Source: an uncultured Campylobacterales bacterium | Lineage (GTDB): Bacteria > Campylobacterota > Campylobacteria > Campylobacterales > QNZT01 | DNA: 52,695 nucleotides | Assembly (NCBI GenBank): GCA_964447385.1 | Contig: CAYUSV010000002.1 | Span: 1 to 52,695 of the forward strand | Direction of reading: 5' to 3' | Notes under the pieces: model-generated | The model's database searches: none | The model's input: the letters and a program-made list of their open reading frames with translations, nothing else | Told to the model about the DNA's origin: nothing | Translations under genes and position numbers: made by a program | In this document: one piece after another, positions 14,965-34,224 of the stretch | Layout: the number at the start of each line of letters is the position of its first letter | Numbering within the stretch: the first letter of the stretch is position 1

Positions 14965-14969
14965 ATTAG

Positions 14970-17406: not shown

Positions 17407-17445
17407 ATAAGTAATGTTCCTATTACTTAACCTTAAAGAGGAAAC

Positions 17446-18252
17446 ATGAATCAATACGCTAGAGCAAAAGATCTATTTAACGATGATTTTGATTTAAGTG
17501 GGTATTTTGACTCTTTGACCTTCGAGTATGCAAAAAAGAGTTTAGTCGATGCTATCACTGCACATGACACACCTTTAGTGTTTGTTTTGGGTAGTCCAGG
17601 AAGTGGAAAAAGTTTTTTGTTAAATTATATCACCCAAAAAGTTAAAGATGTCAGGGTAGCGAAGTATTTTACCCATCCATACTTTGATGATAAAGAGTTT
17701 TTGGAGATTCTCTTATCTCTTGCAGGTAAAAACATCGGACGAAACGAATTTACAACCGAAGCGTTAATTTCACAACTGAGAAGAAGCTTTAGCAATCTTG
17801 AATATACGATTTTTATCGATGAAGCACAACTTTTAACAGAAGAGCAAATAGAGCTTATTAGAATTTTAAGTGACCAGAAAATCTTTCAATTTGTTTTAGC
17901 TATGCATGAAAAAGAGGGAAGATATATCTTACAAAAGGATCATTTTAAATCTCGCACAAATAGGGTAGTAAAAATCGAACAACTCCAAGATCATGAAGTA
18001 ACCAGATATATAGAACACCGCCTAATCTCAAACAATCTATCAGAACTAGCATCTGAGTTTAAAAAAAGACACATCCAATACATAAGTCAATATGCAAAAA
18101 GGAACTTTCGAACAACCAAAAAATTAGTCCGAACTCTTTTTGAAATTATGAATATCGCGCACAAAGAAAATCTCTCTAGCAAATATACAAAAGTGAGTGA
18201 AAGAACATTAACTATGGCAGCTATAGATACAGGACTTTTAGATGTTAAATAA
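17446..18252 (+). CDS. mshM: ExeA/MshM-type AAA ATPase
   Basis: Walker A GSPGSGKSF, Walker B IFIDEAQ. 268 aa. Sits directly after the secretin, as in msh operons. Confidence 0.75.
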   Translation: MNQYARAKDLFNDDFDLSGYFDSLTFEYAKKSLVDAITAHDTPLVFVLGSPGSGKSFLLNYITQKVKDVRVAKYFTHPYFDDKEFLEILLSLAGKNIGRNEFTTEALISQLRRSFSNLEYTIFIDEAQLLTEEQIELIRILSDQKIFQFVLAMHEKEGRYILQKDHFKSRTNRVVKIEQLQDHEVTRYIEHRLISNNLSELASEFKKRHIQYISQYAKRNFRTTKKLVRTLFEIMNIAHKENLSSKYTKVSERTLTMAAIDTGLLDVK

Positions 18253-18922
18253 TAATTTTAATGAACTTGTCAAAAAATATGAAAAATATAGAGGTAAAAG
18301 AAGAGATAAAATGCTTCTTAGTACATTGCTTGTTTTAGCGATATTAGCTGGTGGTTATTATTTGGTAACAAATAGCGGTTTTATCACACAAAGTTTCAAA
18401 AAAACTACACCAGAGTCACAAAAGAGTGGAACTATTGTAGATACTCAAATAGCTGATGAAACAACAGAAGATAACCCGGTACAAGAGATTAAAACACACA
18501 AAGAAGAGAAAGCTGAAAAACCACTCCAAAGAGTTAAGGTAGATACACCAAAAACTGAAGAGTTGCCAAATAAAGTCTATGATCGTACCACTAAAAAAAT
18601 AGAAAATACAAATCCATTTCAACTAAAAGTCAAGGAGAGAAAAAACCTATATAAACTCTTAACAGATGATAAAAAACAAAATAGTTATCAATCTGCTATA
18701 AGTGTGGCTCAGTTTTATTTTGAAGAAAAAAATTATGATCAGACAATTATCTGGTCTGTAAAAGCAAGTAAAAAAGATCCTAGAGAGAGTCTTCCGTGGA
18801 TTTTATATGCAAAATCAAAAGCTACACAGGGTAAAACAAAAGTTGCAAAAAAAGCACTCGCTATCTATTTAAAACATACCGACTCAAAAAAGGTACAAGA
18901 TTTGCTAGATACTTTGAAATAG
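18242..18922 (+). CDS. MshN-like bitopic protein (TM + C-terminal TPR-like helices)
   Basis: 226 aa. TM LLSTLLVLAILAGGYYLV, charged linker, C-terminal helical repeat (..AISVAQFYFEEKNYDQTIIWSVKA..). 11-nt overlap with mshM. Confidence 0.45.
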   Translation: MLNNNFNELVKKYEKYRGKRRDKMLLSTLLVLAILAGGYYLVTNSGFITQSFKKTTPESQKSGTIVDTQIADETTEDNPVQEIKTHKEEKAEKPLQRVKVDTPKTEELPNKVYDRTTKKIENTNPFQLKVKERKNLYKLLTDDKKQNSYQSAISVAQFYFEEKNYDQTIIWSVKASKKDPRESLPWILYAKSKATQGKTKVAKKALAIYLKHTDSKKVQDLLDTLK

Positions 18923-18959
18923 GATCATTTTAAACTAAATGATCCTCAAATTTTGAGGT
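18921..18959 (+). promoter_or_regulatory. two overlapping hairpins between the mshN-like ORF and mshE; the second pairs with the mshE Shine-Dalgarno
   Basis: AGGATCATTT(18921-30)/AAATGATCCT(18937-46) form a 10-bp stem. CCTCAAAATTTTGAGG (18944-59) is a perfect 16-nt palindrome. Its GAGG is the RBS 9 nt before the ATG at 18969. Confidence 0.5.
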
Positions 18960-18968
18960 AATTTAGAT

Positions 18969-20633
18969 ATGCGAAAAACGGTACGAATTGGTGATATCCT
19001 TATAGAAGAGGGAAAAATCACCCAAGAACAACTCATGCATGCTCTCAGCGTTCAAAAGGGGAGTAACTTTTCAAAAAAACTTGGTGAAATTTTTGTCGAT
19101 GAAGGGCTTATCAGTGAAAAAGAGTTTGCTCAGGTTTTAGCTAGTCAACTTGATTTTGAGTTTATTGATCTTTATGGTACCAATATTAATTTTAACACCT
19201 TAAAAAACTTTTCACTAAATATGCTTAAAAGCGCAGATGCTCTTGTGATAAAAGAGGATGAAGATTTTATCCATATAGCAATCTCTGATCCTTTGAATTA
19301 TGATCATATGGAGTTGTTGGAGCGAAATATAGTCATAAAACCTATAAGATACTATATCTCTTTAAAATCAGATATCAAACATGTATATGAGAGATTTGAG
19401 ATCATAGAGACTACACAATCATTGATGCAAAAAGTAAAAAATGAGATAAATTCTAAAGAGTTTAAATTAGACAATGAACAGAGTTCTATCATGCAGCTTA
19501 TTGAGCAGATTATCAAAAGTGCTGTAAGAAATGGTGCTAGTGATATTCATATAGAGCCAAACAACAAAGATGTCTCTGTTAGAAATAGAGTTGATGGAGT
19601 TTTAAGAGAAGTTTTTATCTTGGATATCGATATATACAATGCACTAGCTTCTCGTATCAAAATTTTGGGAAATCTTGATATTTCTGAAAAAAGAAGATCA
19701 CAAGATGGAAGATTTTCACTAGAAGTTAATGGCAATATATATGATTTTAGGCTCTCAACAGCACCTACACTTCACGGAGAGTCAATTGTACTTCGAATTT
19801 TGGATCAGCAAAAGGTTCTTTTAAAACTTGATAAATTAGGCATGAGTGAGACAAACTTAAAAAAATTTCAAGCACTACTTGATACTCCATATGGTGTTGT
19901 TTTTGTAACAGGACCCACAGGAAGTGGTAAAACAACCACACTTTATGCTGCACTAAACGAGATAAAAAGTATCGAAAATAAGATAATCACTATCGAAGAC
20001 CCTATTGAGTATCAACTGCCACTTGTGCAACAAATACAAACAAATGAGAAGATAAATTATACATTTAACCATGTTTTAAAATCAGTCCTGAGACAAGATC
20101 CAGATATAATCATGGTAGGTGAGATAAGAGACGATGAAACTCTAAATACAGCAGTTGGTGCCTCTTTAACGGGTCACTTGGTATTTTCAACTCTACACAC
20201 CAATGATGCGCCGAGTGCTATTACAAGATTGGTTCAAATGGGATTACAATCATATCTTATTGCTGATTCTCTTATTGGGATTGTAACTCAAAGATTGGTT
20301 AGAGAAATTTGTCAAAGTTGCAAAGAGTCACATAAACCTCAAAATACTCTTATTGAAAAAGTTAAAAAATATCTACCTGAGTCTTATATGTTTTATCACG
20401 GTAAAGGGTGTACAAAATGTAGTTTTAGTGGTTATCGTGGAAGAGTTATGATTTGTGAGATATTGCAGATAAACGATACGATATCTAGTCAAATCTCTGA
20501 AGAGAAAAACAGACATGAGATCTATAAAGAGGCGCTTAAAGGTGGATATGAACCTATGCTCATAGATGGTCTTAAAAAAGCACTACAATCAACAACATCT
20601 TTAGAAGAGGTGCTTAGAGTTGTTAAAATATGA
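18969..20633 (+). CDS. mshE: GspE/PilB-family assembly ATPase with MshE-type N-terminal domain
   Basis: Walker A GPTGSGKTT, Asp/His boxes, tetracysteine CQSC...CTKC. N-terminus carries two tandem RLGxxhhxxGhhxxxxLxxxLxxQ-like motifs. Confidence 0.9.
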   Translation: MRKTVRIGDILIEEGKITQEQLMHALSVQKGSNFSKKLGEIFVDEGLISEKEFAQVLASQLDFEFIDLYGTNINFNTLKNFSLNMLKSADALVIKEDEDFIHIAISDPLNYDHMELLERNIVIKPIRYYISLKSDIKHVYERFEIIETTQSLMQKVKNEINSKEFKLDNEQSSIMQLIEQIIKSAVRNGASDIHIEPNNKDVSVRNRVDGVLREVFILDIDIYNALASRIKILGNLDISEKRRSQDGRFSLEVNGNIYDFRLSTAPTLHGESIVLRILDQQKVLLKLDKLGMSETNLKKFQALLDTPYGVVFVTGPTGSGKTTTLYAALNEIKSIENKIITIEDPIEYQLPLVQQIQTNEKINYTFNHVLKSVLRQDPDIIMVGEIRDDETLNTAVGASLTGHLVFSTLHTNDAPSAITRLVQMGLQSYLIADSLIGIVTQRLVREICQSCKESHKPQNTLIEKVKKYLPESYMFYHGKGCTKCSFSGYRGRVMICEILQINDTISSQISEEKNRHEIYKEALKGGYEPMLIDGLKKALQSTTSLEEVLRVVKI

Positions 20634-21871
20634 AATATTTTGAAATAGTCTACATGATAGGAGGAGAGAAAAGCTCAACTATCATCCAATCCCTACACAA
20701 GATAGACGCTCTAAAGCAGTTTCAAAATCGCACTTTGGGCATAATGGTCTCAGTGGATGAGGTAAACGAACCTCTAATGATGCGTTTAGAAAATTTTACA
20801 AAATCAATCAAAAACAGATCGCTAAAAAAACGAGTCAAACCAGAGCCTTATATCGCTTCTCTTCGACAATTAGGTGTCATGCTTGATGCTGGAATTCCTA
20901 TAAATCAATGTTTTTTGGAAGTTGTAAATACAACCGACAACAAACAGATAAGAGAAATTTTTAGACAAATCGCTCTAAAAGTAGAATCAGGAAGTAGCAT
21001 ATCTCAGACATTTGCTGATTTCTCGTTTGAGCTTGGAAGTCTCTCTTATTCTCTTATCTCCCTTGGAGAGCAGACAGGTGCTTTGGCAGAAGCGGTGATA
21101 AAACTCTCAAATATATTGGATGAGATAGAACAAAATAGGAAAAAATTAAAAAAAGCTCTTCGTTACCCTTTTATTGTCATGCTTGCTATGGTTGGTGCTT
21201 TTATCACTGTTATAAAGATGATTGTTCCACAGTTTAAAGAGATGTTTGAAGAGTACAACAGCGATCTTCCCCTGCCTACTCAAATACTTTTAGGTATTGA
21301 GGATTTTATAAAAGAGAGTGGTTTGCTTATCTTAATCTCAATTATAGGCATTATCATAACTCATATTATACTCTATCGCCAAAAAGGTAGATACAAATAT
21401 CTAATGGATAAATATATCTTAAAAATCTATTTAGTAGGGAAAATTACCCGCTTATCTATGACAGGAAGATTTATGTATGTTTTTAACTCTCTTACAAACT
21501 CAGGAGTACCAATCATAAAAGCTCTCACTATTTCAGAAAATATAGTAGAAAATAGTTATCTTAAGGAGCGATTTGAACAGATAGAAGACTCTATCGAAGA
21601 GGGTAAGACACTAACCCAAGGATTTACAGAGAGTGAACAATTTGAAAATATGATCATACAGATGATCAAAGCCGGAGAGACAAGCGGATCTCTTAACAAA
21701 ATGCTTGAAAAAGTACATATCTACTACTCTGCCAAGTATAATGACCTAATCGACAATATCTCAACCTATATTGAACCAATCATGATAGCAGCTCTTGCTG
21801 GTTTTTTAACTCTATTTGCTCTTGGTATCTTTTTACCTATGTGGTCTATGGCTGAAGTAATTGGACAATAA
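20630..21871 (+). CDS. mshG: GspF/PilC-family inner-membrane platform protein
   Basis: 413 aa. Duplicated GspF domain (..LGVMLDAGIPI.., ..LTNSGVPIIKAL..) and three TM segments. ATGA overlap with mshE. Confidence 0.88.
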   Translation: MKYFEIVYMIGGEKSSTIIQSLHKIDALKQFQNRTLGIMVSVDEVNEPLMMRLENFTKSIKNRSLKKRVKPEPYIASLRQLGVMLDAGIPINQCFLEVVNTTDNKQIREIFRQIALKVESGSSISQTFADFSFELGSLSYSLISLGEQTGALAEAVIKLSNILDEIEQNRKKLKKALRYPFIVMLAMVGAFITVIKMIVPQFKEMFEEYNSDLPLPTQILLGIEDFIKESGLLILISIIGIIITHIILYRQKGRYKYLMDKYILKIYLVGKITRLSMTGRFMYVFNSLTNSGVPIIKALTISENIVENSYLKERFEQIEDSIEEGKTLTQGFTESEQFENMIIQMIKAGETSGSLNKMLEKVHIYYSAKYNDLIDNISTYIEPIMIAALAGFLTLFALGIFLPMWSMAEVIGQ

Positions 21872-21876
21872 TATAT

Positions 21877-22515
21877 TTATGTACATGTTATACTAAATGC
21901 CATACCAAGGTCAGAGCTAGAAAAATCAACAGAGTTGGTAGTATTAACATCAATGAGCATAAAATCACCACTTATAATTTGTCTCTTCTTGCTTAAGGAG
22001 CTTTCAACATAACATTTATTTGTAGAGTTTGTATCTACCATATAAAGCCAAAAGTCATTTTTATCAGGTTTTCCCTCTATGTCTCTTGAGTTATTTGTTG
22101 AACTAAATTTAACTCCAACAGTAGGATCAGAAGCTTTAGCTGTATAAATTCTGTAGATATTTGTACTATTATTTTCAAACTGCTTTTTAAAACCACTTTT
22201 GCCAGAAGTTTTTATCAATGCTCCTATATCGTCACCGTTTCGTGATAGATTATAAGGATAACCACTAGATGCTAAATCTGTCTCTATATCATCATCTACA
22301 CCATCATTGTTCCAATCAAAATCATCATCATTTACACTCCAAGTCCCATGAATTGACTCTAACGCTGCCGTAATAGCTGCTACGCTTGAGAGTTCTGTGG
22401 ATCTTTTTGCTTGATCTTTGATATTGGTAAATTTTGGTATAGCTACAGAAGATAGTATACCGATAATCACAATTACAAATATAAGCTCAACCATAGTAAA
22501 AGCATTTCGCTTCAT
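21877..22515 (-). CDS. type IV pilin (major-pilin candidate 1)
   Basis: MKRNA/FTMVELIFVIVIIGILSSVAIPKF class III signal. 212 aa. Two C-terminal Cys (..NKCYV.., ..SITCT) could form a D-region disulfide. AAGGAA RBS. Confidence 0.85.
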   Translation of the reverse strand: MKRNAFTMVELIFVIVIIGILSSVAIPKFTNIKDQAKRSTELSSVAAITAALESIHGTWSVNDDDFDWNNDGVDDDIETDLASSGYPYNLSRNGDDIGALIKTSGKSGFKKQFENNSTNIYRIYTAKASDPTVGVKFSSTNNSRDIEGKPDKNDFWLYMVDTNSTNKCYVESSLSKKRQIISGDFMLIDVNTTNSVDFSSSDLGMAFSITCT

Positions 22516-22547
22516 AAAGTTTCCTTGGATAGTATTTATATACTATT

Positions 22548-22574
22548 ATATCGACAAGGTAAACTAAATATATA
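22548..22574 (-). promoter_or_regulatory. candidate sigma-28 (FliA-type) promoter TATA-N15-GTCGATAT
   Basis: Minus strand reads TATA-TATTTAGTTTACCTT-GTCGATAT, ending 32 nt before the pilin ATG. The -10 octamer is identical to those at 27629 and 31492. The -35 has one mismatch to TAAA. Confidence 0.5.
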
Positions 22575-22639
22575 CTTATACTGAAAAAATAGATTAATTT
22601 TTTTTGTTTATGTAAAAAATTGTTACATTATATACACAA

Positions 22640-23350
22640 TTAAGTATGACACTCCAAAGGTGTTCTCTCTGGCTGGTTTAAAAACTTGTATCCATTGTAT
22701 ATTGTAAATATCCCATAAAGAATTACAGCAATAGAAGCTAGTTTTATCATCGTATTTCTAAAGCTTGTTTGCTTAAATACTCCTACAAAAAATCCCAATG
22801 AAAACAGAGCAGGGATAGTGCTAAGTCCAAATATCCCCATGACAATTGCACCCCAAAGCGGACTAGTTGTGCTGGCTGCTATGATGGCAAATGAGTAGAC
22901 CAGTCCACATGGCAAAAGTCCATTTAACATGCCTAATAGGAAAAAACTATAAAACGATTGTTTGCCCAAAAGAGTTTTAAAAGCATTTTGATACCAACTA
23001 TTTTTTGAGATAGAGTGCTCGATAAGGGTTAAAAACTTTATCTTTCCCGTTAGTGACAATCCAGCCAATATCATAGCAACTCCGGCTACGATGAGTAGTG
23101 TACCGTTTGCAGTGTTATTGATAGTAGTAACACCCCCGATAAAACCAAACACTCCACCCAAAATCATGTAGGTAAATATACGCCCAAAAGAGTAGGTAAG
23201 ATGAGCTATTGACTGTTTTGCTTTGCTCCATTTGTCATCTACTTTTGTACTAGTGTATGCGATGACAATTCCTCCACACATGCCGATACAGTGTCCAAAA
23301 GAGCCTAAAAAAGCGATAGCAATGATACTTAGTAAATTTACTGCTTCCAT
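22640..23350 (-). CDS. DsbD_2/TauE-like polytopic membrane protein (HCxxMCGG motif)
   Basis: 236 aa, ~6 TM. N-terminal GSFGHCIGMCGG and a second ..LLPCGL.. motif. 1-nt gap from the upstream NosL-like ORF. Confidence 0.6.
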   Translation of the reverse strand: MEAVNLLSIIAIAFLGSFGHCIGMCGGIVIAYTSTKVDDKWSKAKQSIAHLTYSFGRIFTYMILGGVFGFIGGVTTINNTANGTLLIVAGVAMILAGLSLTGKIKFLTLIEHSISKNSWYQNAFKTLLGKQSFYSFFLLGMLNGLLPCGLVYSFAIIAASTTSPLWGAIVMGIFGLSTIPALFSLGFFVGVFKQTSFRNTMIKLASIAVILYGIFTIYNGYKFLNQPERTPLECHT

Positions 23351-23351
23351 A

Positions 23352-23855
23352 TCACAGACCCAATACCTGTTTTTTGACTCTTGGGTCGGTTAGGTTTTCG
23401 CCTCGGAGCATTTTTAGACGCATTTTATCAAAATCCATCGCATCTTTTTCCTTTTTTTCTCTTGCACCAAATCCATATTTCATAGGAGTAGAAGCACCTA
23501 AAACATACCAAGCTTTTCTTGCATCTATCCACCCTCCACTATCTTCAGCATGTGTCCATATAGTAGCTTTTTCTTTGAACTCTTTATCTTCTAGCCATTT
23601 TATGAGACACCCTATATCATCAAAAAACCAAGTAGTTCCACTAGGGGATATGACTTGGGCAGCGTAGTTTTCACTTTTTATAGTCATAGCACATTGAGTA
23701 TCTTGAAAGTGATTTGGAATAATTTTTATAGGGAGCTTTTTTGTGTTATTTTCTTTTACTGTAACCATCTGTTTTTTATTAGAGAGCGCTACTATCACTA
23801 TTATAATAATTGAAGCGATAATCAAAGTTGTTAGAATTGGTACTAATTTTTTCAT
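23352..23855 (-). CDS. NosL-like protein A (membrane-anchored)
   Basis: Preferred ATG at comp(23853..23855) overlaps the upstream TGA (ATGA). TM anchor. ..QCAMTI..WFFDDIGCLIKW.. and ..AWYVLGASTPMKYGFGA.. resemble the NosL family. Confidence 0.65.
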   Translation of the reverse strand: MKKLVPILTTLIIASIIIIVIVALSNKKQMVTVKENNTKKLPIKIIPNHFQDTQCAMTIKSENYAAQVISPSGTTWFFDDIGCLIKWLEDKEFKEKATIWTHAEDSGGWIDARKAWYVLGASTPMKYGFGAREKKEKDAMDFDKMRLKMLRGENLTDPRVKKQVLGL

Positions 23856-24814
23856 AAAAAAACTCCGTTTTTGATGTAATACACCAAAGGATATAGTGTA
23901 CATAGTATGACAAAAATTGTGTTAAAAAGCCGTGAATATCGGTATAAACTCTCTACCTCCGTGTGGATTAGAAGTTTTAACACCAAGTTTGAAACTCCAA
24001 AAAACACTCCCAAAAAAAGTGTACCCCATAAAAGATAACCGATATAAAAATACTCTTTTTGTAACATACAAAATGGGCACTTATGTGCTGGAAGTTCATA
24101 GATATAGATACCAAAAAAATGAACAACTGATTGATAAGCAATATACAAAAAAACTAAATTAGAGATAGACAATAGTAGCGAATTTTTTCCAAAGCTCAAA
24201 ATAGTATTTAAAATATAAAGAAGATAAAAAAGTACCAAAAGTGTCGTTATACTCAACCCAAAAGAAAGTCTATTGTCTCCTGCTGATCCAAAGACAACAG
24301 AGCAACATTGTGCTAAATTTTCTATCCCTATAGTAGAAAAGTAAACAATATCTAAAGTAAATTCAACACCTATAAGTACAAATATCAAGGTAAAAAACCA
24401 AAACTTAACTTTTAAATATGGATAATCTTTAGCTTGGAAATCTTTTTGGTTGATGATAAGCCAGATACCGATGAAAAAAAGTATGATAATTTTTAAAAAC
24501 AGAAGCACATTTCCAAAATCACCAGCACCTAGCACACCAGTTGCGCACATAGCACCAGGTACTAAAACAGAAAGAGAATCAATCGTATAAGCAAAATAAG
24601 GCATAAGTAAAATTTTAAATATAAGCGAAAACAAGATGATCAAAACAATCAGATAAGCTCTTTTTTCTAATGTATACTGCTTGGTCGAGGTAGCGTTAAA
24701 ATCCCAATCTTTTAAGATACTAATAGCTCCTATAAGTGCGATAGAGTTTAATATCAAAAGCACTCCTTCGCTAAATATATAGATAAAAACGCTATTAGAT
24801 AAAAATATCTGCAC
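23852..24814 (-). CDS. Cys-rich polytopic membrane protein, unknown family
   Basis: 320 aa, about 9 hydrophobic segments. Cys motifs GAMCATG, AQCCSVVFG, HKCPFCM. Abuts the ABC ATPase stop. Confidence 0.6.
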   Translation of the reverse strand: MQIFLSNSVFIYIFSEGVLLILNSIALIGAISILKDWDFNATSTKQYTLEKRAYLIVLIILFSLIFKILLMPYFAYTIDSLSVLVPGAMCATGVLGAGDFGNVLLFLKIIILFFIGIWLIINQKDFQAKDYPYLKVKFWFFTLIFVLIGVEFTLDIVYFSTIGIENLAQCCSVVFGSAGDNRLSFGLSITTLLVLFYLLYILNTILSFGKNSLLLSISNLVFLYIAYQSVVHFFGIYIYELPAHKCPFCMLQKEYFYIGYLLWGTLFLGVFFGVSNLVLKLLIHTEVESLYRYSRLFNTIFVILCTLYPLVYYIKNGVFL

Positions 24815-25483
24815 CTATATAATCTCACCATCTTTTATATTTATAACTCTGTCTTCAAAATTAACTTCATCAAAAATAGGATCATGAGTTGCTATGACGA
24901 TCGTGATACCTAGTTTTTTAAGTGTTTTTAAAACCTCTATAAAGTTTAAAGAGTTTGCCAAGTCTAAATTTGCTGTCGGCTCATCACATAAAATTATCTT
25001 TGGGTCATTGACCAAAGCTCTTGCTATGGCACATCTTTGTTTTTCACCACCTGAGAGGTTATTAACGCATTGATGAGCTTTGTGTGTTATATTTGCTAAA
25101 TTCATAGCTTTTTGAACTTTTTCCCTGATTTGTGATGGTGCAAAACCTAGTGGAATAAGAGGCAAAGAAATGTTTTCACTTACACTTAGTATCTCAAAAA
25201 GATTAAAAGGTTGGAAGATAAAACCGATATTTTGCACTCTAAACTTTGATGCATGATGCTCAGGTAGTTTTGCGATACGCTCACCATCTATGATAATCTC
25301 TCCACTTGTGGGCTTGATAAGAGCAGATATAAGTGATAGAAGCGTAGATTTACCACTACCACTTACCCCTTTTAAGATGACAAGCTCTCTCTCTTTTATA
25401 GAGAGATTTATATTTTTTAAAGCACAAAACTCTCTGTTTGAGTTTGGATTAAAAGTCATATAGAGTGATTTTATCTCTATCAT
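24815..25483 (-). CDS. ABC transporter ATP-binding protein (MacB/LolD/FtsE-like)
   Basis: Walker A GVSGSGKST, signature LSGGEKQR, Walker B ILCDEPT. 4-nt overlap with the permease. Confidence 0.9.
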   Translation of the reverse strand: MIEIKSLYMTFNPNSNREFCALKNINLSIKERELVILKGVSGSGKSTLLSLISALIKPTSGEIIIDGERIAKLPEHHASKFRVQNIGFIFQPFNLFEILSVSENISLPLIPLGFAPSQIREKVQKAMNLANITHKAHQCVNNLSGGEKQRCAIARALVNDPKIILCDEPTANLDLANSLNFIEVLKTLKKLGITIVIATHDPIFDEVNFEDRVINIKDGEII

Positions 25484-26664
25484 TTCATCGCCTCTATCGG
25501 GTCAATGATAGATATCTTCCATACAGGTATGAGAACTGAAGCTATAAAAGGGGTTATGAAAAATAAAAAGAGTGAAAAAAGAAATCCAAAATCAATAACA
25601 GGGATAAAAGTTGTACTATTTTGCAAGTTATTAAAGCCTAAAAATATATCTCTTAACAGTGGTGCATTAAAAATATAGACATACATGTATGCAATGATAG
25701 CACCTATGATAAAAGCTGTGACACCAATCACTAAAGTCTCTAAAACTTTTAGTTTAATTAGATCTTTTATGCTCCAGCCCAAAGCCCTAAGTATGCCTAT
25801 CTCTTTTTTATCTACTGAGTTTACCATAGAGTATCGCTGATAGAGAATCATCATAAATGTCAAAAGTGTGATAACAAAAAGAAGCAAAAACAGTCCACCT
25901 TTATAATTAAATAGTTTTTCATACGAGTTTTGTATATCATCTTTTGAAATGACTCTAGTATCATAATGTTTTAATAATAGCTTGAACTTGACATTATCTC
26001 GTTCTGCATCATTTGGTACATTTAAGATGATGTCGGTTGCTTTATCGTCATCGATACCTAAAATATCTCTTGCTAAGTCTATGTTTACCATTATTATATC
26101 ATTGCCTATTAAACTAGTGTCTTTTGGTAATGTTTCGTATATATGAACTTTTTTAACACCCTTTTGTGGTGTTTTGAAAAGAAAGTTTTTTGTATAGTGA
26201 TTTTTCGCCATAAAGTTTTTGACACCTTCGCCAACGACCATGTTGTCTTTTTCAAGAAATTTTTTGATATCAAAGTCGCTAAATAGTTTTTTAAACTCCT
26301 CATCTAAAAAAGGATCAAAAAAATCAACTCCCACAACCGTAAAATACTCACTTTGAGCTCTCATAAAATATCTGCCAAATACCCTAGCTTGTACATCACT
26401 AACACCTTTGATAGAGCTATATAAATCAATAACATCAGTATCGATGTCAACACTCCTTCCGCCTCTAATCTTTTGCACAACAAAGTCTGGTTGTGCATCA
26501 AGAGTAGTTAAGACTTCATATCTAATCGAAGAGCTTATAAAAAGTACCGAACACAAAAGAGCAATCATAAATACAGAGATAAAAAAAACTACACTATGTT
26601 TTGTTCTATGTTTATAGATGAGTAAAAACAAAAAGTTAAAAAAAGTACTATTATTCATATACAA
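25480..26664 (-). CDS. FtsX/MacB-type ABC permease
   Basis: 394 aa. N-terminal TM, ~220-aa extracytoplasmic domain, three C-terminal TMs (FtsX-like topology). Confidence 0.8.
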   Translation of the reverse strand: MYMNNSTFFNFLFLLIYKHRTKHSVVFFISVFMIALLCSVLFISSSIRYEVLTTLDAQPDFVVQKIRGGRSVDIDTDVIDLYSSIKGVSDVQARVFGRYFMRAQSEYFTVVGVDFFDPFLDEEFKKLFSDFDIKKFLEKDNMVVGEGVKNFMAKNHYTKNFLFKTPQKGVKKVHIYETLPKDTSLIGNDIIMVNIDLARDILGIDDDKATDIILNVPNDAERDNVKFKLLLKHYDTRVISKDDIQNSYEKLFNYKGGLFLLLFVITLLTFMMILYQRYSMVNSVDKKEIGILRALGWSIKDLIKLKVLETLVIGVTAFIIGAIIAYMYVYIFNAPLLRDIFLGFNNLQNSTTFIPVIDFGFLFSLFLFFITPFIASVLIPVWKISIIDPIEAMK

Positions 26665-26848
26665 AACCCATAAAATCGATAGGCTTCATCTTTGGATATA
26701 ATCGTAACTCTTCATCATATACTCTAAACCTTGGCTCTAAATAAGAAGTTGATAACGAAAGAGAGGGAAGATGTGTAAAAGTTGCTACAGTTTGGGTACT
26801 CTTTTTATTATGCACAAAGGCATGCCACAAAATGAAGGTTATAATCAT
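26651..26848 (-). CDS. possible small membrane protein (uncertain start)
   Basis: 65-aa ORF overlapping the permease start by 14 nt. No SD before its ATG. The in-frame upstream codons continue a hydrophobic helix back to an AGGAG at comp(26902..26906). Confidence 0.25.
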   Translation of the reverse strand: MIITFILWHAFVHNKKSTQTVATFTHLPSLSLSTSYLEPRFRVYDEELRLYPKMKPIDFMGFVYE

Positions 26849-26909
26849 AAAAAGAGCTAGAAAAAAAGAGAAAAAAACCTTAGTAAGAGTTGTGATGATA
26901 TCTCCTGTA

Positions 26910-27551
26910 TCAGTCTAAATCATAGACTAGTTTTTCATCTATATCACTAAATTTTACTATTTTTTTCCCATGATGTTCATATGAAAAACTTTTGGCATCT
27001 TTTTGGGTTTTAAAAGCGATAAATTCATCTCCCATAGGACCATAGACAGTGGAGCCTGTAACATACCAAGCTGTTTTGGCATCTATAGGTTCTAGTGTAT
27101 AGTAATCATTTACGATAATCTGTGCAATATCTATCTTTTTGTGTTTATCAAGATAGTACTTTAGCATATCTTTAACACCATCAAAATAGTAAGTTTTATC
27201 TTCTATTTGTAATGATGTTATCCATTTTGGAAATTTTACTACAAACATACCACAAACTGGACACTTTGCATCTTTAGGAGGATTGACTTTTTGTAAAATT
27301 TTAGTCTTAGGCTCTCTTTTGGTTAAGTATATTACCACTGCATATAATTTTTTATTATCTATGTTGGAGCAATAATTTTTATCTTTTATCTGAAGTTTTA
27401 GCTCATTTGGTGTGTTGTATCTGATAGTTTCAATGGCTTTTTTATCACACATGATATCATATAGTTTTTCGCCTCTTTTGAGTAGTTTTGTCTCATCAGC
27501 CAAGGCTATGGTAAAGATAAAAGAGAACAAAAACAGAGTTTTTATAAACAT
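26910..27551 (-). CDS. NosL-like periplasmic protein B (CPVCGM motif)
   Basis: Signal peptide (..IALA/DE). KCPVCGMFVVKF.. then ..AWYVTGSTVYGPMGDEFIAFKTQKDAKSF..HGKKIVKFSDI, typical of the NosL family. AAGGA RBS, TATAAT at comp(27581..27586). Confidence 0.7.
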   Translation of the reverse strand: MFIKTLFLFSFIFTIALADETKLLKRGEKLYDIMCDKKAIETIRYNTPNELKLQIKDKNYCSNIDNKKLYAVVIYLTKREPKTKILQKVNPPKDAKCPVCGMFVVKFPKWITSLQIEDKTYYFDGVKDMLKYYLDKHKKIDIAQIIVNDYYTLEPIDAKTAWYVTGSTVYGPMGDEFIAFKTQKDAKSFSYEHHGKKIVKFSDIDEKLVYDLD

Positions 27552-27609
27552 TAAAATCCTTGATAAAATTAAGATACAAGATTATACAGATGCTTTATTA
27601 AGTGTTTGT

Positions 27610-27636
27610 TAAAGGGCTTCTATTTTTAGTCGATAT
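27610..27636 (+). promoter_or_regulatory. candidate sigma-28 promoter TAAA-N15-GTCGATAT
   Basis: TAAA 27610-13, a 15-nt spacer, GTCGATAT 27629-36. The AGGAG RBS follows at 27644-48 and the ATG at 27656. Confidence 0.55.
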
Positions 27637-27655
27637 TGGCTATAGGAGATTTATT

Positions 27656-28714
27656 ATGGATTTTAAATTAGTACAAGAGTATACAAAAGACCTAAGTATA
27701 CTTTATGTTGAAGACAATGATGCAATTAGAGCAAGTACGACTTCCGTTTTTGAAAATTTTTTCAAAAACGTTGATGTTGAGACTAATGGACTTAGCGCTT
27801 TAGAGAAGTATGTAAACTACTATAGCTCACATGGTGTTGATTATGATTTGGTAATCACTGATATAAATATGCCGGTTCTTAACGGTATTGACATGGCTAA
27901 AAAAATTCTTGAACAAACCCCAACTCAACCCATAATTTTTGTAACCGCCCACGATGAAAGTTCCTATATGCTTGAAGCTATCAGAATGGGCGCATCAAGC
28001 TTTTTAATTAAGCCTCTGAAAATTGATGATCTCGCTTCTGTTTTACATAAAGTATCTCAAGCAATTTGTGATAGGCAACAAGTACAACAACACTACACTC
28101 AAATAGAAGAGTTTAGTGCAAAACTGCAAGAACGGAACAGTGAGCTTGAAAAATCCCTGAGAGTTTTGAATACAATGGTTTATAAAGATCATCATACAAA
28201 CATAGATAAAACTGACAAAAAAAAATCAACCCCTAAAGAGAGTGAATTATATAGAGCACAAGAGCAAATTGCTTTTCTTGTAAAAGATGATCTACCTGAA
28301 TTAAAAGAGTTACATTTAGAGATTGATTCACTGCTAATTGCGATTATTGTTAATGATGTTGATGAAAATATTATATATGAAAACTTACCAAAGATGACAA
28401 TACTCTTTTCTAACTATGCAGCTATCTTGCAACTATACTCTTTTTACAATGAGCTCAGTAAAGCAATGTTAGAATTTACAAAAATCATTCAAACAGTTGA
28501 TCTCCCAGAGGAAAAAGAGAGTAGATTAAATATATTTTTATTTCTTGAGAGTTTCATACATGTACTCGGTAAATGGCAAAATGATCTACATCTTCTTGAA
28601 TATGACAAATTAAACTATTTAGATGCATCAATAATCAGTGATATGAGTACAATTTCGATTATGTGGAAACAAGAAGAAGTATCAATCGAGTCAAGTGAAT
28701 TAGAGTTTTTTTAG
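27656..28714 (+). CDS. response regulator: REC domain + ~230-aa helical C-terminal domain of unknown type
   Basis: LYVEDND..DLVITDINMP..FVTAH..K REC motifs. No HTH, AAA+, GGDEF or HD motif seen after it. ATG 27656 with an AGGAG RBS is preferred over the track GTG at 27602. Confidence 0.8.
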   Translation: MDFKLVQEYTKDLSILYVEDNDAIRASTTSVFENFFKNVDVETNGLSALEKYVNYYSSHGVDYDLVITDINMPVLNGIDMAKKILEQTPTQPIIFVTAHDESSYMLEAIRMGASSFLIKPLKIDDLASVLHKVSQAICDRQQVQQHYTQIEEFSAKLQERNSELEKSLRVLNTMVYKDHHTNIDKTDKKKSTPKESELYRAQEQIAFLVKDDLPELKELHLEIDSLLIAIIVNDVDENIIYENLPKMTILFSNYAAILQLYSFYNELSKAMLEFTKIIQTVDLPEEKESRLNIFLFLESFIHVLGKWQNDLHLLEYDKLNYLDASIISDMSTISIMWKQEEVSIESSELEFF

Positions 28715-28727
28715 GATAAGTATAAAT

Positions 28728-30191
28728 ATGAAAAATAAATCATTTATACAAACATTAAAAACTACAGAGTATCATCCAGAACTTGTCAAAATGTTTCTGG
28801 ATACCGTCTCAAAGGGAATCATATCTGCGAATATTATGATTCCACTCTTTTATGCTACTATCTTTATAAAGTTTGTTCCTGTATATATCTTAGCCATATG
28901 GTTATCTGCTCATGCTATAACCATCTACTTTAGACTAAAGATTAAAACTTCAATATTAAAATTCCAAGATAATAATAATCCAAAAATTAAAAAATATGTT
29001 CAATTAAATATTTATGTCATTGCACTAAGCGGTCTGCTCTGGGGAGTAGCAAGTATCATCTCAGTCATATATGCACCTGAATTTTACATGTTTTTAACTA
29101 TGGGGCTTATTATGGGTTTAAGTGCAGGTGCTGCATTTACACTTACGCCTATATTACATGCTTTTTTGAGTTTTGTATTTTCATCTATTGTACCTTTTAT
29201 TTGTGCACTATTTATTTTTAATTCCAATGAATATTTTATAATAATTCTAATGCTACTTTTCTTTATGACTTTTGTTGTCCTTAATGGATATGGTTTTTAT
29301 AAAAAACTTTTACAAAATATCGAACTTAAACACAAGTTTATCAAACTTAATAATAATTTAGAGAAAGAGGTTGCCAATCGAACGGTACAGTTATGTGAAT
29401 TAAATAATTCTCTTGAAAAAAGAATCAGGCAAGAGGCAAAAGCCAACAGAGATAAAGATAGTCAACTTCTTCAACAATCTCGTTTAGCTCAAATGGGTGA
29501 AATGATTAGCATGATTGCACACCAATGGAGACAACCACTGTCTGCTATCTCATCAACAAGTATTAACATGAAAATGAAATTTTTCTTTGATGAGTTTAAT
29601 TTAAATGATAAAGAGCAACAACAACTGTGTAAAAAATACTTTGAGCAACAACTAGATAATATAGAAAGCTATGTCCAAAACCTTACAACTACAATCGATG
29701 ACTTTAGAAATTTTTACAAACCAAACAGAGGTACAAAAAGGGTCAATGTAAATGAACCTATTCAAAAGGCACTTAGTATCATCAAAGACTCTATCAATTC
29801 ATCAGGCGTTAAAGTGATCGAAACTTTTAAAGCAAATATAGAATTAGATCTATTTGAAAGTGAATTGATGCAAGTGTTTTTAAATATTTTGAAAAATGCG
29901 CAAGATAATTTTAAAGAAAAAGATATTGAAAACCCCTATATAAAAATTATCACTGCAAATGCAAATGGTGGTGTTAGGATAGTTTTTAGAGATAATGGTG
30001 GTGGAATTGATAAAAATATACTTGTAAAGATATTTGATCCTTATTTCTCAACAAAAGATGAAAAAAATGGTACAGGATTGGGGCTATATATGAGTAAAAT
30101 AATCGTAGAAGAGCATCATAACGGTAAACTTTATGTAGAAAATATTGATGATGGTGTACAATTTGTTGTAGAGTTTAGAGATAAGATATAA
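28728..30191 (+). CDS. sensor histidine kinase with polytopic N-terminal domain
   Basis: ~6 TM segments, coiled coil, H-box MIAHQWRQPLSAI, N/G boxes (..NILKNAQDN.., ..DNGGGI.., ..GTGLGLYMS..). Confidence 0.85.
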   Translation: MKNKSFIQTLKTTEYHPELVKMFLDTVSKGIISANIMIPLFYATIFIKFVPVYILAIWLSAHAITIYFRLKIKTSILKFQDNNNPKIKKYVQLNIYVIALSGLLWGVASIISVIYAPEFYMFLTMGLIMGLSAGAAFTLTPILHAFLSFVFSSIVPFICALFIFNSNEYFIIILMLLFFMTFVVLNGYGFYKKLLQNIELKHKFIKLNNNLEKEVANRTVQLCELNNSLEKRIRQEAKANRDKDSQLLQQSRLAQMGEMISMIAHQWRQPLSAISSTSINMKMKFFFDEFNLNDKEQQQLCKKYFEQQLDNIESYVQNLTTTIDDFRNFYKPNRGTKRVNVNEPIQKALSIIKDSINSSGVKVIETFKANIELDLFESELMQVFLNILKNAQDNFKEKDIENPYIKIITANANGGVRIVFRDNGGGIDKNILVKIFDPYFSTKDEKNGTGLGLYMSKIIVEEHHNGKLYVENIDDGVQFVVEFRDKI

Positions 30192-30766: not shown

Positions 30767-31456
30767 CTATAAAGAGTCTATTATAGCTACATTAGCTGTT
30801 GAAGTTCCATTCACATCACATGATACTGCTATTTCACCAGCGGCGTCGGCAGCAGCAACTGTATCTACAAATGTATTTGCTGTCGTTAAAGCAGTCGTTA
30901 AATCTATCAATTTTATCTCTCCACTAACTAATTTTACATTAGTTGATGATGCACCATATGTAACATTTGCATCATATGCTGAAGCATTAAAGACCCAAAC
31001 ATCATTTTTATCAGGTTTACCATTTGTATCAGATGTTCCTTGTCTAACTCCTGAAGAAGCATTTGAAGCTTTTCCTTTGATAAAATAGATATCATCATAA
31101 ATACCATCACCACCTGGTGTACCTGCATCTGCATAAGCAATAATTCTTAATCCGTCACCTTTTTTTATAATTTTACTAAGTACTTTATCATTACTATTTG
31201 CAGCAGCATATGTAGTTGCTAAGTTAGTATTCCAAGAAGTATCATGCCAATCTACATTTACATTATCATTATCTTCTAGTTGAAACTCCATTGCTGCTAC
31301 AATAGCTCCATCCAATCCAGTTAAACTTGAATACTCAGCATTTACCTTAGCTCTATCTTTAATATCTCCAAATTTTGGAACGGCAGCGACTGCTAATATA
31401 CCTATGATTATGATCACAAAAATTAACTCTACCATTGTAAAACCACTTCTTCTCAT
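30767..31456 (-). CDS. type IV pilin (major-pilin candidate 2, paralogue of 21877..22515)
   Basis: MRRSG/FTMVELIFVIIIIGILAVAAVPKF class III signal. Shares ..GKPDKNDVW.. with pilin 1 (..GKPDKNDFW..). 229 aa, single Cys. Confidence 0.85.
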   Translation of the reverse strand: MRRSGFTMVELIFVIIIIGILAVAAVPKFGDIKDRAKVNAEYSSLTGLDGAIVAAMEFQLEDNDNVNVDWHDTSWNTNLATTYAAANSNDKVLSKIIKKGDGLRIIAYADAGTPGGDGIYDDIYFIKGKASNASSGVRQGTSDTNGKPDKNDVWVFNASAYDANVTYGASSTNVKLVSGEIKLIDLTTALTTANTFVDTVAAADAAGEIAVSCDVNGTSTANVAIIDSL

Positions 31457-31549: not shown

Positions 31550-32758
31550 ATGGCAATTTCTATTTATGAAGCTCTAGCACTTATAGAAAAAAACCTACCT
31601 ACTATTTCAAGTGAAACTATTCCCATAGAAAATGCTATCTCCCGTATAGCTTCAAAAACCGTTAAGGCAACTTTAGCTCTACCAATATTTAACAATTCTG
31701 CTATGGATGGTTATGGACTTTGTGGATCATCAGATAGTTATAAAATAATCGGCAAAATTCTTGCAGGAGATGCTCATACCTATAATTTAAAAAACACAGA
31801 GTGTATAAAAATTCTAACAGGTGCAAGAGTACCCAAAAGTGTTGATACTATCATTCCACAAGAGAATACAAAAGAGAGTGAATCTTTTATAAATATACAA
31901 AAACCAGTCAAATTTGGAGCAAATATCCGATATCGTGGTGAAGATATAAAAGAAAACGATATTGTTGTTTTAAAAGGTGATACAATAGATTCATCACATA
32001 TCGGATTGTTAGCTAGTCAAGGCATAACCCATATAGAAATATATCGTAAAATTCGTGTAGCTATTTTTGCTAGTGGAAGCGAGCTAAAACTCCACCACGA
32101 GCCGTTAGAAGGTTCACAAATTTATAATTCAAACACACCTTATTTACTCTCAAGATCTGAGGAACTTGGATGTCAAACACGATTTGTAGGTAAGAGCAAA
32201 GATGATATAGAATCACTAAAAGAACTCATAAAGACATCATTAGATTGTGATATCATTATCACTAGCGGTGGTGTTAGTGTGGGAGAAGCTGACTATACAA
32301 AAGAGGCATTTAAAGATCTATCTATGGAAACTTTTTTTGATAAAATTCAGATAAAACCAGGCAAACCAACTACTTTTGGAAAAATTAATGATAAAATCAT
32401 ATTAAATCTTCCTGGCAATCCTTTGGCAAGTGCACTGAATTTTGAGATATTTGGTAAATTTATGATAGCAAAATTAAGTGGCAAAAAAAACCATCACTTA
32501 AATACAATTAAAACAACAATAAGCACAAATATACCCTCACCTCGTCCAGTGGCAAATGTTATACCAGGTTTTTATAATGGTTCATCTTTTACTCCAACAA
32601 AAAAATTCGCACCGGGAATGGTAAATGTTTTAAACCACTGCAATGGATTGATTGTCATAGATGAGATGACAAATGAGTTAAAAACAGGAGATACTGTAAA
32701 GTTTTTACCATTAAAATGGGACTTTATGAGGGAAGATTTTGTGAAATTTACTTCATAA
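31550..32758 (+). CDS. moeA: molybdopterin molybdotransferase (copy 1)
   Basis: 402 aa. ..NSAMDGY.., ..IITSGGVSVGEADY.., ..KPGKPTTFG.., ..LPGNPLAS.. MoeA motifs. Confidence 0.88.
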   Translation: MAISIYEALALIEKNLPTISSETIPIENAISRIASKTVKATLALPIFNNSAMDGYGLCGSSDSYKIIGKILAGDAHTYNLKNTECIKILTGARVPKSVDTIIPQENTKESESFINIQKPVKFGANIRYRGEDIKENDIVVLKGDTIDSSHIGLLASQGITHIEIYRKIRVAIFASGSELKLHHEPLEGSQIYNSNTPYLLSRSEELGCQTRFVGKSKDDIESLKELIKTSLDCDIIITSGGVSVGEADYTKEAFKDLSMETFFDKIQIKPGKPTTFGKINDKIILNLPGNPLASALNFEIFGKFMIAKLSGKKNHHLNTIKTTISTNIPSPRPVANVIPGFYNGSSFTPTKKFAPGMVNVLNHCNGLIVIDEMTNELKTGDTVKFLPLKWDFMREDFVKFTS

Positions 32759-33642: not shown

Positions 33643-34224
33643 TTAATTTGGGCTTGGATTTATAAAAATACTATTATTTAAAAGATTATCCCACATCAAA
33701 AGATCACTCCATTCACTCTTAACCTGTTTGGAAAAAATGATATCTCTTAAATTAATCTCTCCCATAAGTTTACTATACGCATCTTCTCTAAACCCTTGTG
33801 CATATCCTGTATCTGTCTCATGAACTATTACACTATGTACTCTTACATTTTTTTCACCATTTACCATTTTTGTCTGAGAAAGTAACCTGTCTACCATCAA
33901 AAATATAATACGAGAAAACTGTTCAGCAGATGGAGAAACAGGGAGGATTACCCACCTAAGACTATGCTTTTTTATCATATCTATATACTCTTTGTCATCT
34001 TTTTCCCAAATAGCAGTAGCATGATCAAATGAATCAATCAACTCTTTTATAGATAACTTTGTCAATCCAAAATCATAGACCATCTGCCCATGATCGAGAT
34101 AATTTGACTCAAACAAAACTTCTATCTTGTATGAGTGTCCGTGTATGCTATATTTACATCTATCGCTAGTACATCCTCTAACTACATGAGCATTTTCAAA
34201 CTTAAATAATTTTCTTATTATCAC
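33643..34224 (-). CDS. queD: 6-carboxytetrahydropterin synthase
   Basis: ..FKFENAHVV.., ..HGHSYKIEV.., ..HETDT.. PTPS/QueD motifs. 4-nt overlap with queE. Confidence 0.8.
   Translation of the reverse strand: MIIRKLFKFENAHVVRGCTSDRCKYSIHGHSYKIEVLFESNYLDHGQMVYDFGLTKLSIKELIDSFDHATAIWEKDDKEYIDMIKKHSLRWVILPVSPSAEQFSRIIFLMVDRLLSQTKMVNGEKNVRVHSVIVHETDTGYAQGFREDAYSKLMGEINLRDIIFSKQVKSEWSDLLMWDNLLNNSIFINPSPN

Follow-up and report, generated by a model that had tools for sequence, protein, structure and literature searches.

This study concerns an operon of seven genes on the minus strand (positions 22640–27551) of a single contig of 52,695 nt (52.7 kb; G+C ~32%), which was analysed as a whole and is called the window below; its nearest relatives are uncultured Campylobacterales. 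We propose that the products of the operon form an ATP-driven relay for Cu(I) on the periplasmic side of the inner membrane, which would supply extracytoplasmic copper enzymes, a reading in which we place about half of our confidence. Elsewhere, the same genes have nitrous-oxide (N2O) reductase, SCO1, thioredoxins and copper-type outer-membrane receptors as neighbours, which suggests an energy-driven copper hand-over system that has not been described. Indeed, genes of copper-enzyme assembly and copper uptake are neighbours of the module in three or more phyla.

All seven open reading frames (ORFs) lie where an earlier reading of this DNA from its letters alone (the original prediction) had located them, packed as one operon with overlapping or abutting junctions. 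In order of transcription they encode NosL-B (26910–27551, 213 amino acids (aa)), a small protein (26651–26848, 65 aa), an FtsX-type permease (25480–26658/26664, 392/394 aa), an ATP-binding cassette (ABC) ATPase (24815–25483, 222 aa), a Cys-rich membrane protein, here called the Cys protein (23852–24814, 320 aa), NosL-A (23352–23855/23903, 167/183 aa) and a DsbD_2 protein (22640–23350, 236 aa). The stop of the small ORF lies over the permease start with an overlap of 14 nt, the permease and ATPase genes overlap by 4 nt, the gene of the Cys protein follows that of the ATPase with zero gap and joins its stop to the start of NosL-A in an ATGA overlap, and 1 nt separates NosL-A from the DsbD_2 gene. 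The predicted motifs CPVCGM, CPFC/CC/C and HCxxMCGG are all present in the translations. Profile searches of the seven ORFs, which the original prediction had put forward, gave Pfam matches for NosL-B (NosL, E 1e-31, 110.5 bits vs a cut-off of 24), the permease (FtsX, E 7e-12), the ATPase (ABC_tran, E 7e-36) and the DsbD_2 protein (PF13386, CcdA/UreH-like; E 1e-49, 169.7 bits vs 24.9); NosL-A stayed below the cut-off (23.1 bits vs 24), and the Cys protein and the small protein were unmatched. Counts from a promoter and terminator scan of positions 21800–27900 did not exceed those of shuffled controls, so that no operon boundary was drawn from it, and Rfam detected no riboswitch and no other RNA family in the whole window.

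That the genes form one functional module, as had been suggested, is borne out by the conservation of their neighbourhood. In a genome scan with one genome per species, more than 558 genomes matched the Cys protein, and we compared 80 species-level genome loci, mostly from Campylobacterota and four from Krumholzibacteriota. The gene of the Cys protein is found in 78 of them, FtsX in 74, ABC in 73, NosL-A type genes in 56, NosL-B/C type genes, placed upstream of the permease, in 49, DsbD_2 in 40 and the small gene in 33. Gene order is constant across the 80 loci, and absent genes are mostly explained by contig ends; likewise, the gene of the Cys protein directly follows that of the ATPase in 73 of 78 loci, the remainder being cut by contig ends. 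This arrangement is far beyond chance, and the genes are a co-inherited unit. FtsX, ABC and the Cys protein occur together in Campylobacterota, Krumholzibacteriota, Rhodocyclaceae, Gammaproteobacteria and unclassified metagenome lineages, and Azonexus, Sulfurovum sp. CS9, Sulfurospirillum and Poseidonibacter are cultivated and potentially tractable carriers. Because Arcobacteraceae-type loci, among them the one in the complete genome of Poseidonibacter parvus, consist only of FtsX, ABC and the Cys protein, with the small gene in some, we regard these four genes as the core of the module, and NosL and DsbD_2 as accessories.

Within this core, the Cys protein has eight membrane helices (AlphaFold2 model with a predicted local distance difference test (pLDDT) score of 84 and a predicted template-modelling (pTM) score of 0.82) and the invariant residues G87-A-M-C90, C170-C171 and (H244)-x-C246-P-F-(C249). 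Two subgroups, with identities of 23–56%, have in common the motifs G-A-M-C, C-C and P-x-(H)-x-C-P-F-(C), the last of which reads HPHHHCPFC in beta- and gammaproteobacteria. All three motifs are located in loops of the side that is poor in Lys and Arg (mean K+R 2.9 vs 8.4 on the other side); this side, and with it the five invariant cysteines, is predicted to face the periplasm. The thiol-rich membrane partners named in the original prediction are conserved in relatives. Searches of Pfam and NCBIfam yielded no family for the Cys protein, a 25-sequence profile found nothing among PDB sequences at E up to 10, and the best match of its model to PDB folds (Foldseek) had an E value of 0.5 and a template-modelling (TM) score below 0.3. 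A relationship to DsbB or VKOR, prompted by CPFCxxQ, was considered and rejected: neither Pfam nor the PDB profile search gave a match, and the best Foldseek match was neither DsbB nor VKOR. By exhaustive profile search the family comprises 963 clusters at 50% identity, all of whose members are annotated as hypothetical and none of which carries a Pfam domain. Lengths are ~310–345 aa, apart from one 403-aa member with a non-conserved extra tail, and no domain fusion was seen among 150 representatives. Proteins of the second subgroup, ~333 aa in length, stem from Rhodocyclaceae, Azonexus, Gammaproteobacteria and other lineages. The Cys protein hence belongs to a family without a name, a Pfam model or a structural relative in the PDB.

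The motor of the module had been described as an FtsX-type permease with a large periplasmic domain and its ATPase, and both Pfam and the structural model agree with this. Gene callers place the start of the permease two codons later than the first ORF call, which gives a protein of 392 aa; it spans the membrane with four helices, and ~200 aa between the first two of them make up a periplasmic domain. Its AlphaFold2 model (pLDDT 82) consists of helix 1 (residues 18–53), a mixed alpha/beta domain (59–238) and three C-terminal helices. By sequence the permease matched nothing in the PDB, and the fold search alone succeeded: Foldseek aligned the model with LolCDE, MacB, Spr0694-5, HrtB, YbbP and BceB (E 9e-15 to 1e-7, TM up to 0.62), LolCDE being the closest. 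Since the modelled fold matches LolCDE, MacB, HrtB, YbbP and BceB, the permease is assigned to the type VII (MacB/LolC/FtsX) mechanotransmission class, in line with the original prediction. It presumably forms a homodimer, because the operon has no other permease gene. The ATPase retains intact Walker A (GSGKST), signature (LSGGEKQR), Walker B (ILCDEPT) and H-loop motifs in its translation and belongs to the FtsE/LolD/MacB clade, with its best NCBIfam likenesses to FtsE, LolD, DevA and MacB. To our knowledge, all characterised type VII members (MacB, LolCDE, FtsEX, HrtBA and BceAB) act on the periplasmic side.

With these mechanotransmitters, YbbAP among them, the module shares the permease fold and the clade of the ATPase, yet it fails every equivalog cut-off (for the permease, 27.4 bits vs 362 with the LolCE model TIGR02212; for the ATPase, 177 vs 308 bits with the LolD model TIGR02211) and differs further in that it has no MacA/TolC, no LolA-type acceptor, no EnvC-type hydrolase activator and no BceS kinase, its invariable partner being the Cys protein. 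The proximity of the fold to LolCDE, together with the source annotation of the permease as a 'lipoprotein release system permease', could also be taken to mean that the operon has nothing to do with metals and handles a lipoprotein, a lipid or a peptide as LolCDE, YbbAP or BceAB do, with NosL-like domains that are generic binding modules; that Arcobacteraceae carry the core without NosL would fit as well. Such a non-metal envelope function appears most unlikely to us, given the very low LolCE score, the conserved metal ligands of NosL and the recurrence of copper-related neighbours in at least three phyla.

The small ORF, which the original prediction had considered a possible small membrane ORF, is a real conserved gene that is also annotated as such in relatives (e.g. 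at locus L081). Most of its N-terminal membrane helix is lost in the window and in the closest relative (L003); a full helix is present in other lineages. The protein, 66–110 aa in length elsewhere, has no Pfam match and is defined by the motif LPxxxLSxxYxEPRxRxY...YPxM.PI..MDFVY in an alignment of 34 homologues. In the beta/gamma subgroup a small gene occupies the equivalent position; since hhalign found no significant similarity between the small proteins of the two subgroups (probability 0.5%), these are positional equivalents only.

Among the accessories, NosL-B matches the solved NosL structures of Shewanella denitrificans (7og7) and Pseudomonas stutzeri (7osf, 7znq) with E values of ~1e-10, and its C96-P-V-C99-G-M101 and G-P-M(G) motifs align with C59, C62, M64 and M145 of the Zn/Cu site in Shewanella NosL, of which Cys62, Met64 and Met145 are the strictly conserved Cu(I) ligands (PMC8457098). 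As predicted, NosL-B appears to be secreted and NosL-A membrane-anchored: the former has a cleavable signal peptide (…TIALA-DE) with a single hydrophobic N-terminal segment (residues 1–19) and no lipobox, the latter a single uncleaved N-terminal membrane helix as anchor, likewise without a lipobox. The start of NosL-A is most likely the ATG at 23855, which gives 167 aa instead of the 183 aa from 23903, because homologues of 167 aa match and the ATGA overlap results. Its NosL domain is divergent (motifs Q-C-A-M, F-F-D-D-I-G-C and T-P-M) and phmmer found no match in the PDB; however, profile–profile comparison of a 58-sequence NosL-A-type alignment with the NosL-B family by hhalign gave a probability of 98.2% (E 5e-14), with C-x-M, the D/C pair and P-M in register. 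A swapped Cys/Asp pair as in NosL-A has been described for clade II NosL (PMC8457098).

The third NosL-like gene announced at 42046 was also recovered: NosL-C (42028/42046–42576, plus strand) encodes a lipoprotein, the only one of the three with a lipobox (FIGC), and matches both Pfam NosL (E 2e-13, 51 bits) and NosL in the PDB (E 4e-6), with the motifs CAICGM, YCSIHC and PATM. In Sulfurovum-type loci a NosL-C type gene stands immediately upstream of the NosL-B type gene, and NosL-C is probably a satellite of the module. By alignment, NosL-B, NosL-A and NosL-C all keep the Cu(I) ligands of solved NosL. This agrees with the soft-metal-binding chaperones of the original prediction, and the genomic context of relatives points to copper specifically.

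Regarding the architecture of NosL-B, the NosL domain is preceded by a domain of ~60 aa with two Cys residues, and many NosL-B homologues are tandem double-NosL proteins. This two-Cys domain (residues ~27–88; window 27288–27473, minus strand; KGEKIxxxxC ... C..L....L.A.A.YL) is N-terminal in NosL-B types and C-terminal in the NosL-C types of Sulfurovum (L036:6246-6983, L042:6417-7112), and the copies at the two ends are homologous to each other (hhalign probability 97.7%, E 1.6e-12). Pfam yields nothing for this domain even with E relaxed to 10, and the idea of a haem-less cytochrome c was dropped on the same ground.

The remaining accessory, the DsbD_2 protein, has the residues H20-C21-x-G-M24-C25-G-G in helix 1, H50, P147-C148 and C234 invariant among 41 sequences. 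Conserved cysteines in its first and fourth membrane helices correspond to the arrangement of CcdA-like proteins, and the same subtype follows a TlpA-like redoxin at L083 and in the P0401 context. In gut Firmicutes, proteins that combine HMA and DsbD_2 are members of the copper-responsive CsoR regulon (PMC4938975).

Relatives provide genomic context that is missing from the window. Within the window, nosZ, nosR, nosD, nosY, nosG and nosH were found neither in Pfam scans of nearly all ORFs of at least 100 aa nor by tblastn with NosZ, NosY, NosG and NosH, and this and all further statements on missing nos genes here cover the window only. The absence of nosZ, nosR, nosD and nosY had been noted in the original prediction, whose phrase 'no nos context' is right for the window and wrong for the family: clade II nos genes adjoin the module in 7 of the 80 genome loci (all Campylobacterota, Sulfurovum and Sulfurimonadaceae), and in a gammaproteobacterial metagenome-assembled genome (MAG; L089) it stands beside nosZ. 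In Sulfurovum sp. CS9 (L042) the module lies directly downstream of clade II nos genes, in the order nosG, nosC1, nosC2, nosH, nosF, a NosL-A-like gene, nosY, nosL and a PAS gene, followed by NosL-C type, NosL-B type, small gene, FtsX, ABC, Cys protein and NosL-A type. The NosL-A-like gene between nosF and nosY (L042:3887-4459) encodes a protein of 190 aa that is recognised by phmmer and has no Pfam match; the downstream genes fabF, accA, VTT and a DEAD helicase in Sulfurovum were set aside as unrelated housekeeping genes.

In Sulfurospirillum cavolei, five unexplained genes between nosL and nosY are listed, without interpretation, in a figure legend as hypothetical, permease, ATPase, hypothetical and hypothetical (PMC4794192). 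By order and annotations, within a clade II nos cluster of the same bacterial order, these would be the small gene, FtsX, ABC, the Cys protein and NosL-A, and we infer that they are the module. This legend is the sole trace of a NosL + FtsX module that our full-text literature searches returned; no paper interpreting it was found. A nos cluster is present in 5 of 11 Sulfurospirillum genomes, and S. arcachonense is outside those five (PMC4794192). As S. arcachonense nevertheless carries the module (L054), the latter is neither confined to N2O reducers nor purely a nos accessory.

Outside the Campylobacterota, the core keeps other company. In L089, nosZ and SCO1 are divergent from an operon of SCO1, the small gene, FtsX, ABC and the Cys protein, which is followed by ExbBD, TonB, DsbD_2, a Fer4_5 (CcoG/NapH-type) protein and two TonB-dependent receptors; a Rhodocyclaceae MAG again has the set of TonB-dependent receptor, Fer4_5 and DsbD_2 beside the core. 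The operon of Azonexus sp. IMCC34842 begins with SCO1 and continues with the small gene, FtsX, ABC, the Cys protein and a TlpA-like redoxin; alongside lie a unit of NosL, TonB-dependent receptor, FecR and extracytoplasmic function (ECF) sigma factor, and two more NosL genes. Other lineages have FtsX, ABC, Cys protein, redoxin, DsbD_2, NosL and NosL, or the variant order redoxin, NosL, NosL, small gene, permease, ABC and Cys protein, and on one contig the ABC and Cys-protein genes are a few kb away from a partial nosZ. Azonexus and many metagenome contigs have in common the order SCO1, small gene, FtsX, ABC, Cys protein, TlpA-like redoxin, DsbD_2, NosL and NosL, and TonB-dependent receptors are often near these loci. 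In a metagenome sample of 80 second-subgroup loci, counted where at least 4 kb of flank were available, the small gene (23/25), FtsX (23/25), ABC (21/25) and SCO1 (6/25) are upstream of the Cys-protein gene, and a redoxin (21/30), NosL (14/30) and DsbD_2 (10/30) are downstream within 5 kb. The Campylobacterota version, including that of the window, has DsbD_2 and neither SCO1 nor a redoxin in the operon.

In several beta/gamma-type loci (L087:11589-16113, L106:15697-17940, L094, L104 and L120) an insert of 4–8 kb separates the redoxin from DsbD_2-NosL-NosL. The insert in Azonexus is a cell-surface-signalling uptake unit of NosL, a TonB-dependent receptor with STN domain, FecR and an ECF sigma factor.

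The receptor genes raise the question of whether copper is taken up over the inner membrane rather than handed on in the periplasm. The NosL-like proteins would then gather periplasmic copper behind the TonB-dependent receptors, and the Cys protein, the DsbD_2 protein or both would form a thiol-lined channel that the ABC proteins gate or energise; MerP–MerT is an analogous route for Hg(II). The loci L088 and L089 do resemble loci for uptake in that the core is accompanied by TonB-dependent receptors, TonB, ExbBD, a Fer4_5 reductase-like protein and DsbD_2, and in Azonexus a FecIR-type surface-signalling receptor adjoins NosL. Furthermore, the vicinal CC and the CxxC of the Cys protein are reminiscent of MerT/MerC, and DsbD_2, going by the name of its InterPro family, is kin to UreH-type metal permeases. 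However, no characterised type VII ABC transporter is known to import its substrate, the conserved Cys motifs of the Cys protein are on one face only and form no trans-membrane relay, and SCO1, redoxin and NosL are partners typical of periplasmic assembly, not of cytoplasmic supply. We therefore judge copper uptake improbable.

The redoxin genes in turn bring up thiol chemistry. Conceivably, the Cys protein, DsbD_2 and, elsewhere, the redoxin carry reducing equivalents or persulfide/sulfide to the periplasm, perhaps for the sulfide of CuZ, with the NosL-like proteins as clients rather than carriers of cargo; we know of no identified sulfur donor for CuZ. A TlpA-like redoxin is the commonest accessory in the second subgroup, DsbD_2 has a CcdA-type Cys arrangement, five invariant cysteines of the Cys protein are predicted to face the periplasm, and the carriers are largely sulfur-cycling bacteria. 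What makes this a very improbable function in our view is that the Campylobacterota do without the redoxin, that His and Met beside the Cys motifs (GAMC, HHHCPFC) are more typical of Cu(I) sites, that SCO1 and TonB-dependent receptors indicate a metal, and that no sulfurtransferase or cysteine desulfurase genes are nearby.

An extrusion pump, one of the functions that the original prediction had envisaged, is not supported. No HlyD/MFP or OEP family gene, as expected of a MacAB–TolC system, is present in the operon, its flanks or ten annotated relatives. Nor do the annotated loci hold a gene for any other membrane-fusion protein or outer-membrane factor, a P-type ATPase, a multicopper oxidase or a CusF-like protein; their neighbours are genes of assembly and uptake (SCO1, nosZ, TonB-dependent receptors), not of resistance. 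Many carriers come, moreover, from sulfidic habitats, where sulfide chemistry leads us to expect free copper to be scarce. A system for detoxification of soft metals (Cu, Ag, Cd), in which chaperones pass excess metal to the ABC proteins for expulsion or sequestration, therefore has little probability, even though relatives of the MacB and HrtBA types act as exporters or extractors, several loci are flanked by two-component systems, and copper-stress regulons include Cys-rich membrane partners and DsbD_2 (PMC4938975).

Returning to the Cu(I) relay, we envisage the following mechanism. The core machine, defined by strict co-occurrence, consists of the small protein, a presumably homodimeric permease of MacB/LolC fold with its ATPase, and the eight-helix Cys protein. 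The Cys protein would bind Cu(I) very tightly via the periplasm-facing GAMC, CC and H-x-CPFC motifs. ATP hydrolysis in the cytoplasm may then move the large periplasmic domain of the permease, and this movement could power the passing of Cu(I) between the Cys protein and the two NosL-like chaperones, of which one is anchored in the membrane and the other is soluble. The chaperones would bring copper to client enzymes: to N2O reductase in carriers that have it, and probably to haem-copper oxidases or others. DsbD_2 would keep the metal-binding thiols reduced in a CcdA-like manner, joined by a TlpA-like redoxin in other phyla; alternatively, DsbD_2 may itself be a path for the metal.

The closest known parallel is the NosDFY–NosL system of Pseudomonas stutzeri, where ATP-driven conformational changes gate the transfer of copper from NosL (PDB 7osf-7osj; PMC13068155). 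In both cases a Cu(I) chaperone of the NosL family is paired with ABC proteins, and, as in NosDFY–NosL (PDB 7osf-7osj, 7znq), the ATP cycle of the module would act in the periplasm without transport of a solute; in addition, several lineages have the module in physical linkage with nos genes, and its NosL ligands are conserved. In contrast to NosY, an ABC-2 permease, the permease of the module is a type VII FtsX protein with four helices and the MacB/LolC fold. There is also no NosD beta-helix protein: the scanned ORFs of the window gave no NosD match in Pfam, and tblastn with Sulfurovum NosY returned nothing. Further differences are the eight-helix Cys protein and the small protein as obligatory partners, and the presence of two or three NosL paralogues, none of which belongs to a nos cluster in the window; one is helix-anchored and one soluble, neither of these being a lipoprotein. 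By analogy, the module would thus work like NosDFY–NosL; it stands outside that system and by its modelled fold is a type VII ABC transporter.

Two other pathways invite comparison. Cytochrome c maturation system I (CcmABCDE, CcmG, DsbD) is built of an ABC motor, a polytopic cofactor holder, a small single-helix protein, an anchored chaperone and a thioredoxin/DsbD branch, and the parts list of the module mirrors it one for one. This is an analogy only, as no similarity in sequence or fold was found, the motors belong to different ABC classes, and copper, not haem, is presumed to be the cofactor. The TlpA–ScoI/SenC–CcdA pathway of CuA and cbb3 oxidase assembly and ScsABCD copper tolerance are comparable in that SCO1, a TlpA-like redoxin and a CcdA/DsbD-type protein share the operon of the core in the beta/gamma subgroup; those pathways, however, have no ABC transporter, NosL or Cys protein. 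Taken further, the core might be a phylum-spanning copper counterpart of cytochrome c maturation system I, a general device for ATP-dependent Cu(I) loading of NosL and SCO1 that is needed for the assembly of N2O reductase and haem-copper oxidases in clade II N2O reducers and sulfur-oxidising Campylobacterota, and in its boldest form also delivers the sulfide of CuZ. We regard this extension as speculative and rather unlikely.

Several points weigh against the proposed Cu(I) relay. The alignment shows no conserved Cys or His in the periplasmic domain of the permease, so that this domain probably binds no metal itself. Arcobacteraceae-type loci have neither NosL nor DsbD_2 adjacent to the core, and NosL is hence not obligatory in cis. 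Direct adjacency to nos genes is a minority feature, seen in 7 of the 80 genome loci and in none of the 80 metagenome loci. Proteins of the NosL family respond to iron starvation in Haloferax (PMC11349517) and to fermentation in Sulfurospirillum multivorans (PMC6242987). The assignment to copper draws on homology and gene neighbourhood only, and the redoxin and DsbD_2 partners would suit a pure thiol-redox function equally well.

The flanks of the operon have at most a loose relation to it. A response regulator with a receiver domain only and a membrane histidine kinase (27602–30191, plus strand; Pfam) are divergent from it. Similar kinases and regulators flank the module at L024, L052, L056, L068 and L069 and not in the closest relatives, and the link of this pair to the module is uncertain. 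An OmpR-type response regulator (41406–42041, plus strand; Pfam Response_reg and Trans_reg_C) overlaps the start of NosL-C and lies downstream of a gene for an ApbE flavin transferase (40494–41336, plus strand); a radical SAM gene (42573–43598, minus strand) is convergent to this locus (40494–42576). Because homologues of the OmpR-type regulator, together with a kinase, come directly after DsbD_2 at L075 and L080, it may control the main module and is a possible candidate regulator on grounds of homology.

On the other flank lies a type IV pilus cluster (11071–22515) resembling those for mannose-sensitive haemagglutinin (MSHA) or type II secretion (T2SS). Besides several proteins of the prepilin-type N-methylation kind, it encodes a secretin, an AAA protein, an ATPase of MshE type that carries an MshEN domain, and a T2SSF platform protein. 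One of its pilin genes (21877–22515) shares the strand of the module; a further pilin gene is located at 30767–31456. Just upstream of the cluster (7143–11029, plus strand) are genes for a 666-aa protein with a Peptidase_S74 (endosialidase intramolecular chaperone) domain, which is typical of phage tail spikes, and for a 629-aa protein without a family match. Molybdenum-cofactor genes (two MoeA paralogues, MoaA and MoaE) are dispersed over 31550–32758, 34952–35917 and 49716–51368, and a cytochrome c gene (32789–33556) and a PTPS/radical-SAM pair (33643–34955) are also present. At 35992–37777 (plus strand) the gene of a 169-aa stand-alone PAS protein runs into the start of a gene for a chemoreceptor that has a CZB zinc-binding domain at its C-terminus; a comparable stand-alone PAS gene of Sulfurovum sp. 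CS9 (L042:5806-6345) separates nosL from the module.

In summary, the module joins a mechanotransmission ABC motor and a new Cys-rich family to NosL, SCO1, TlpA-like redoxins, TonB-dependent receptors and nosZ. The N2O reductase dimer holds twelve copper ions, and copper supply limits this enzyme, besides which no biological sink for the greenhouse gas N2O is known to us. We know of no settled route by which copper reaches the periplasmic NosL and SCO1-type chaperones, nor of an established explanation of how N2O reducers obtain copper in sulfidic, copper-poor habitats. The module is a concrete candidate for the supply of copper to chaperones of the NosL and SCO1 types, and, if the proposed relay is correct, the type VII ABC superfamily would gain a new kind of job.

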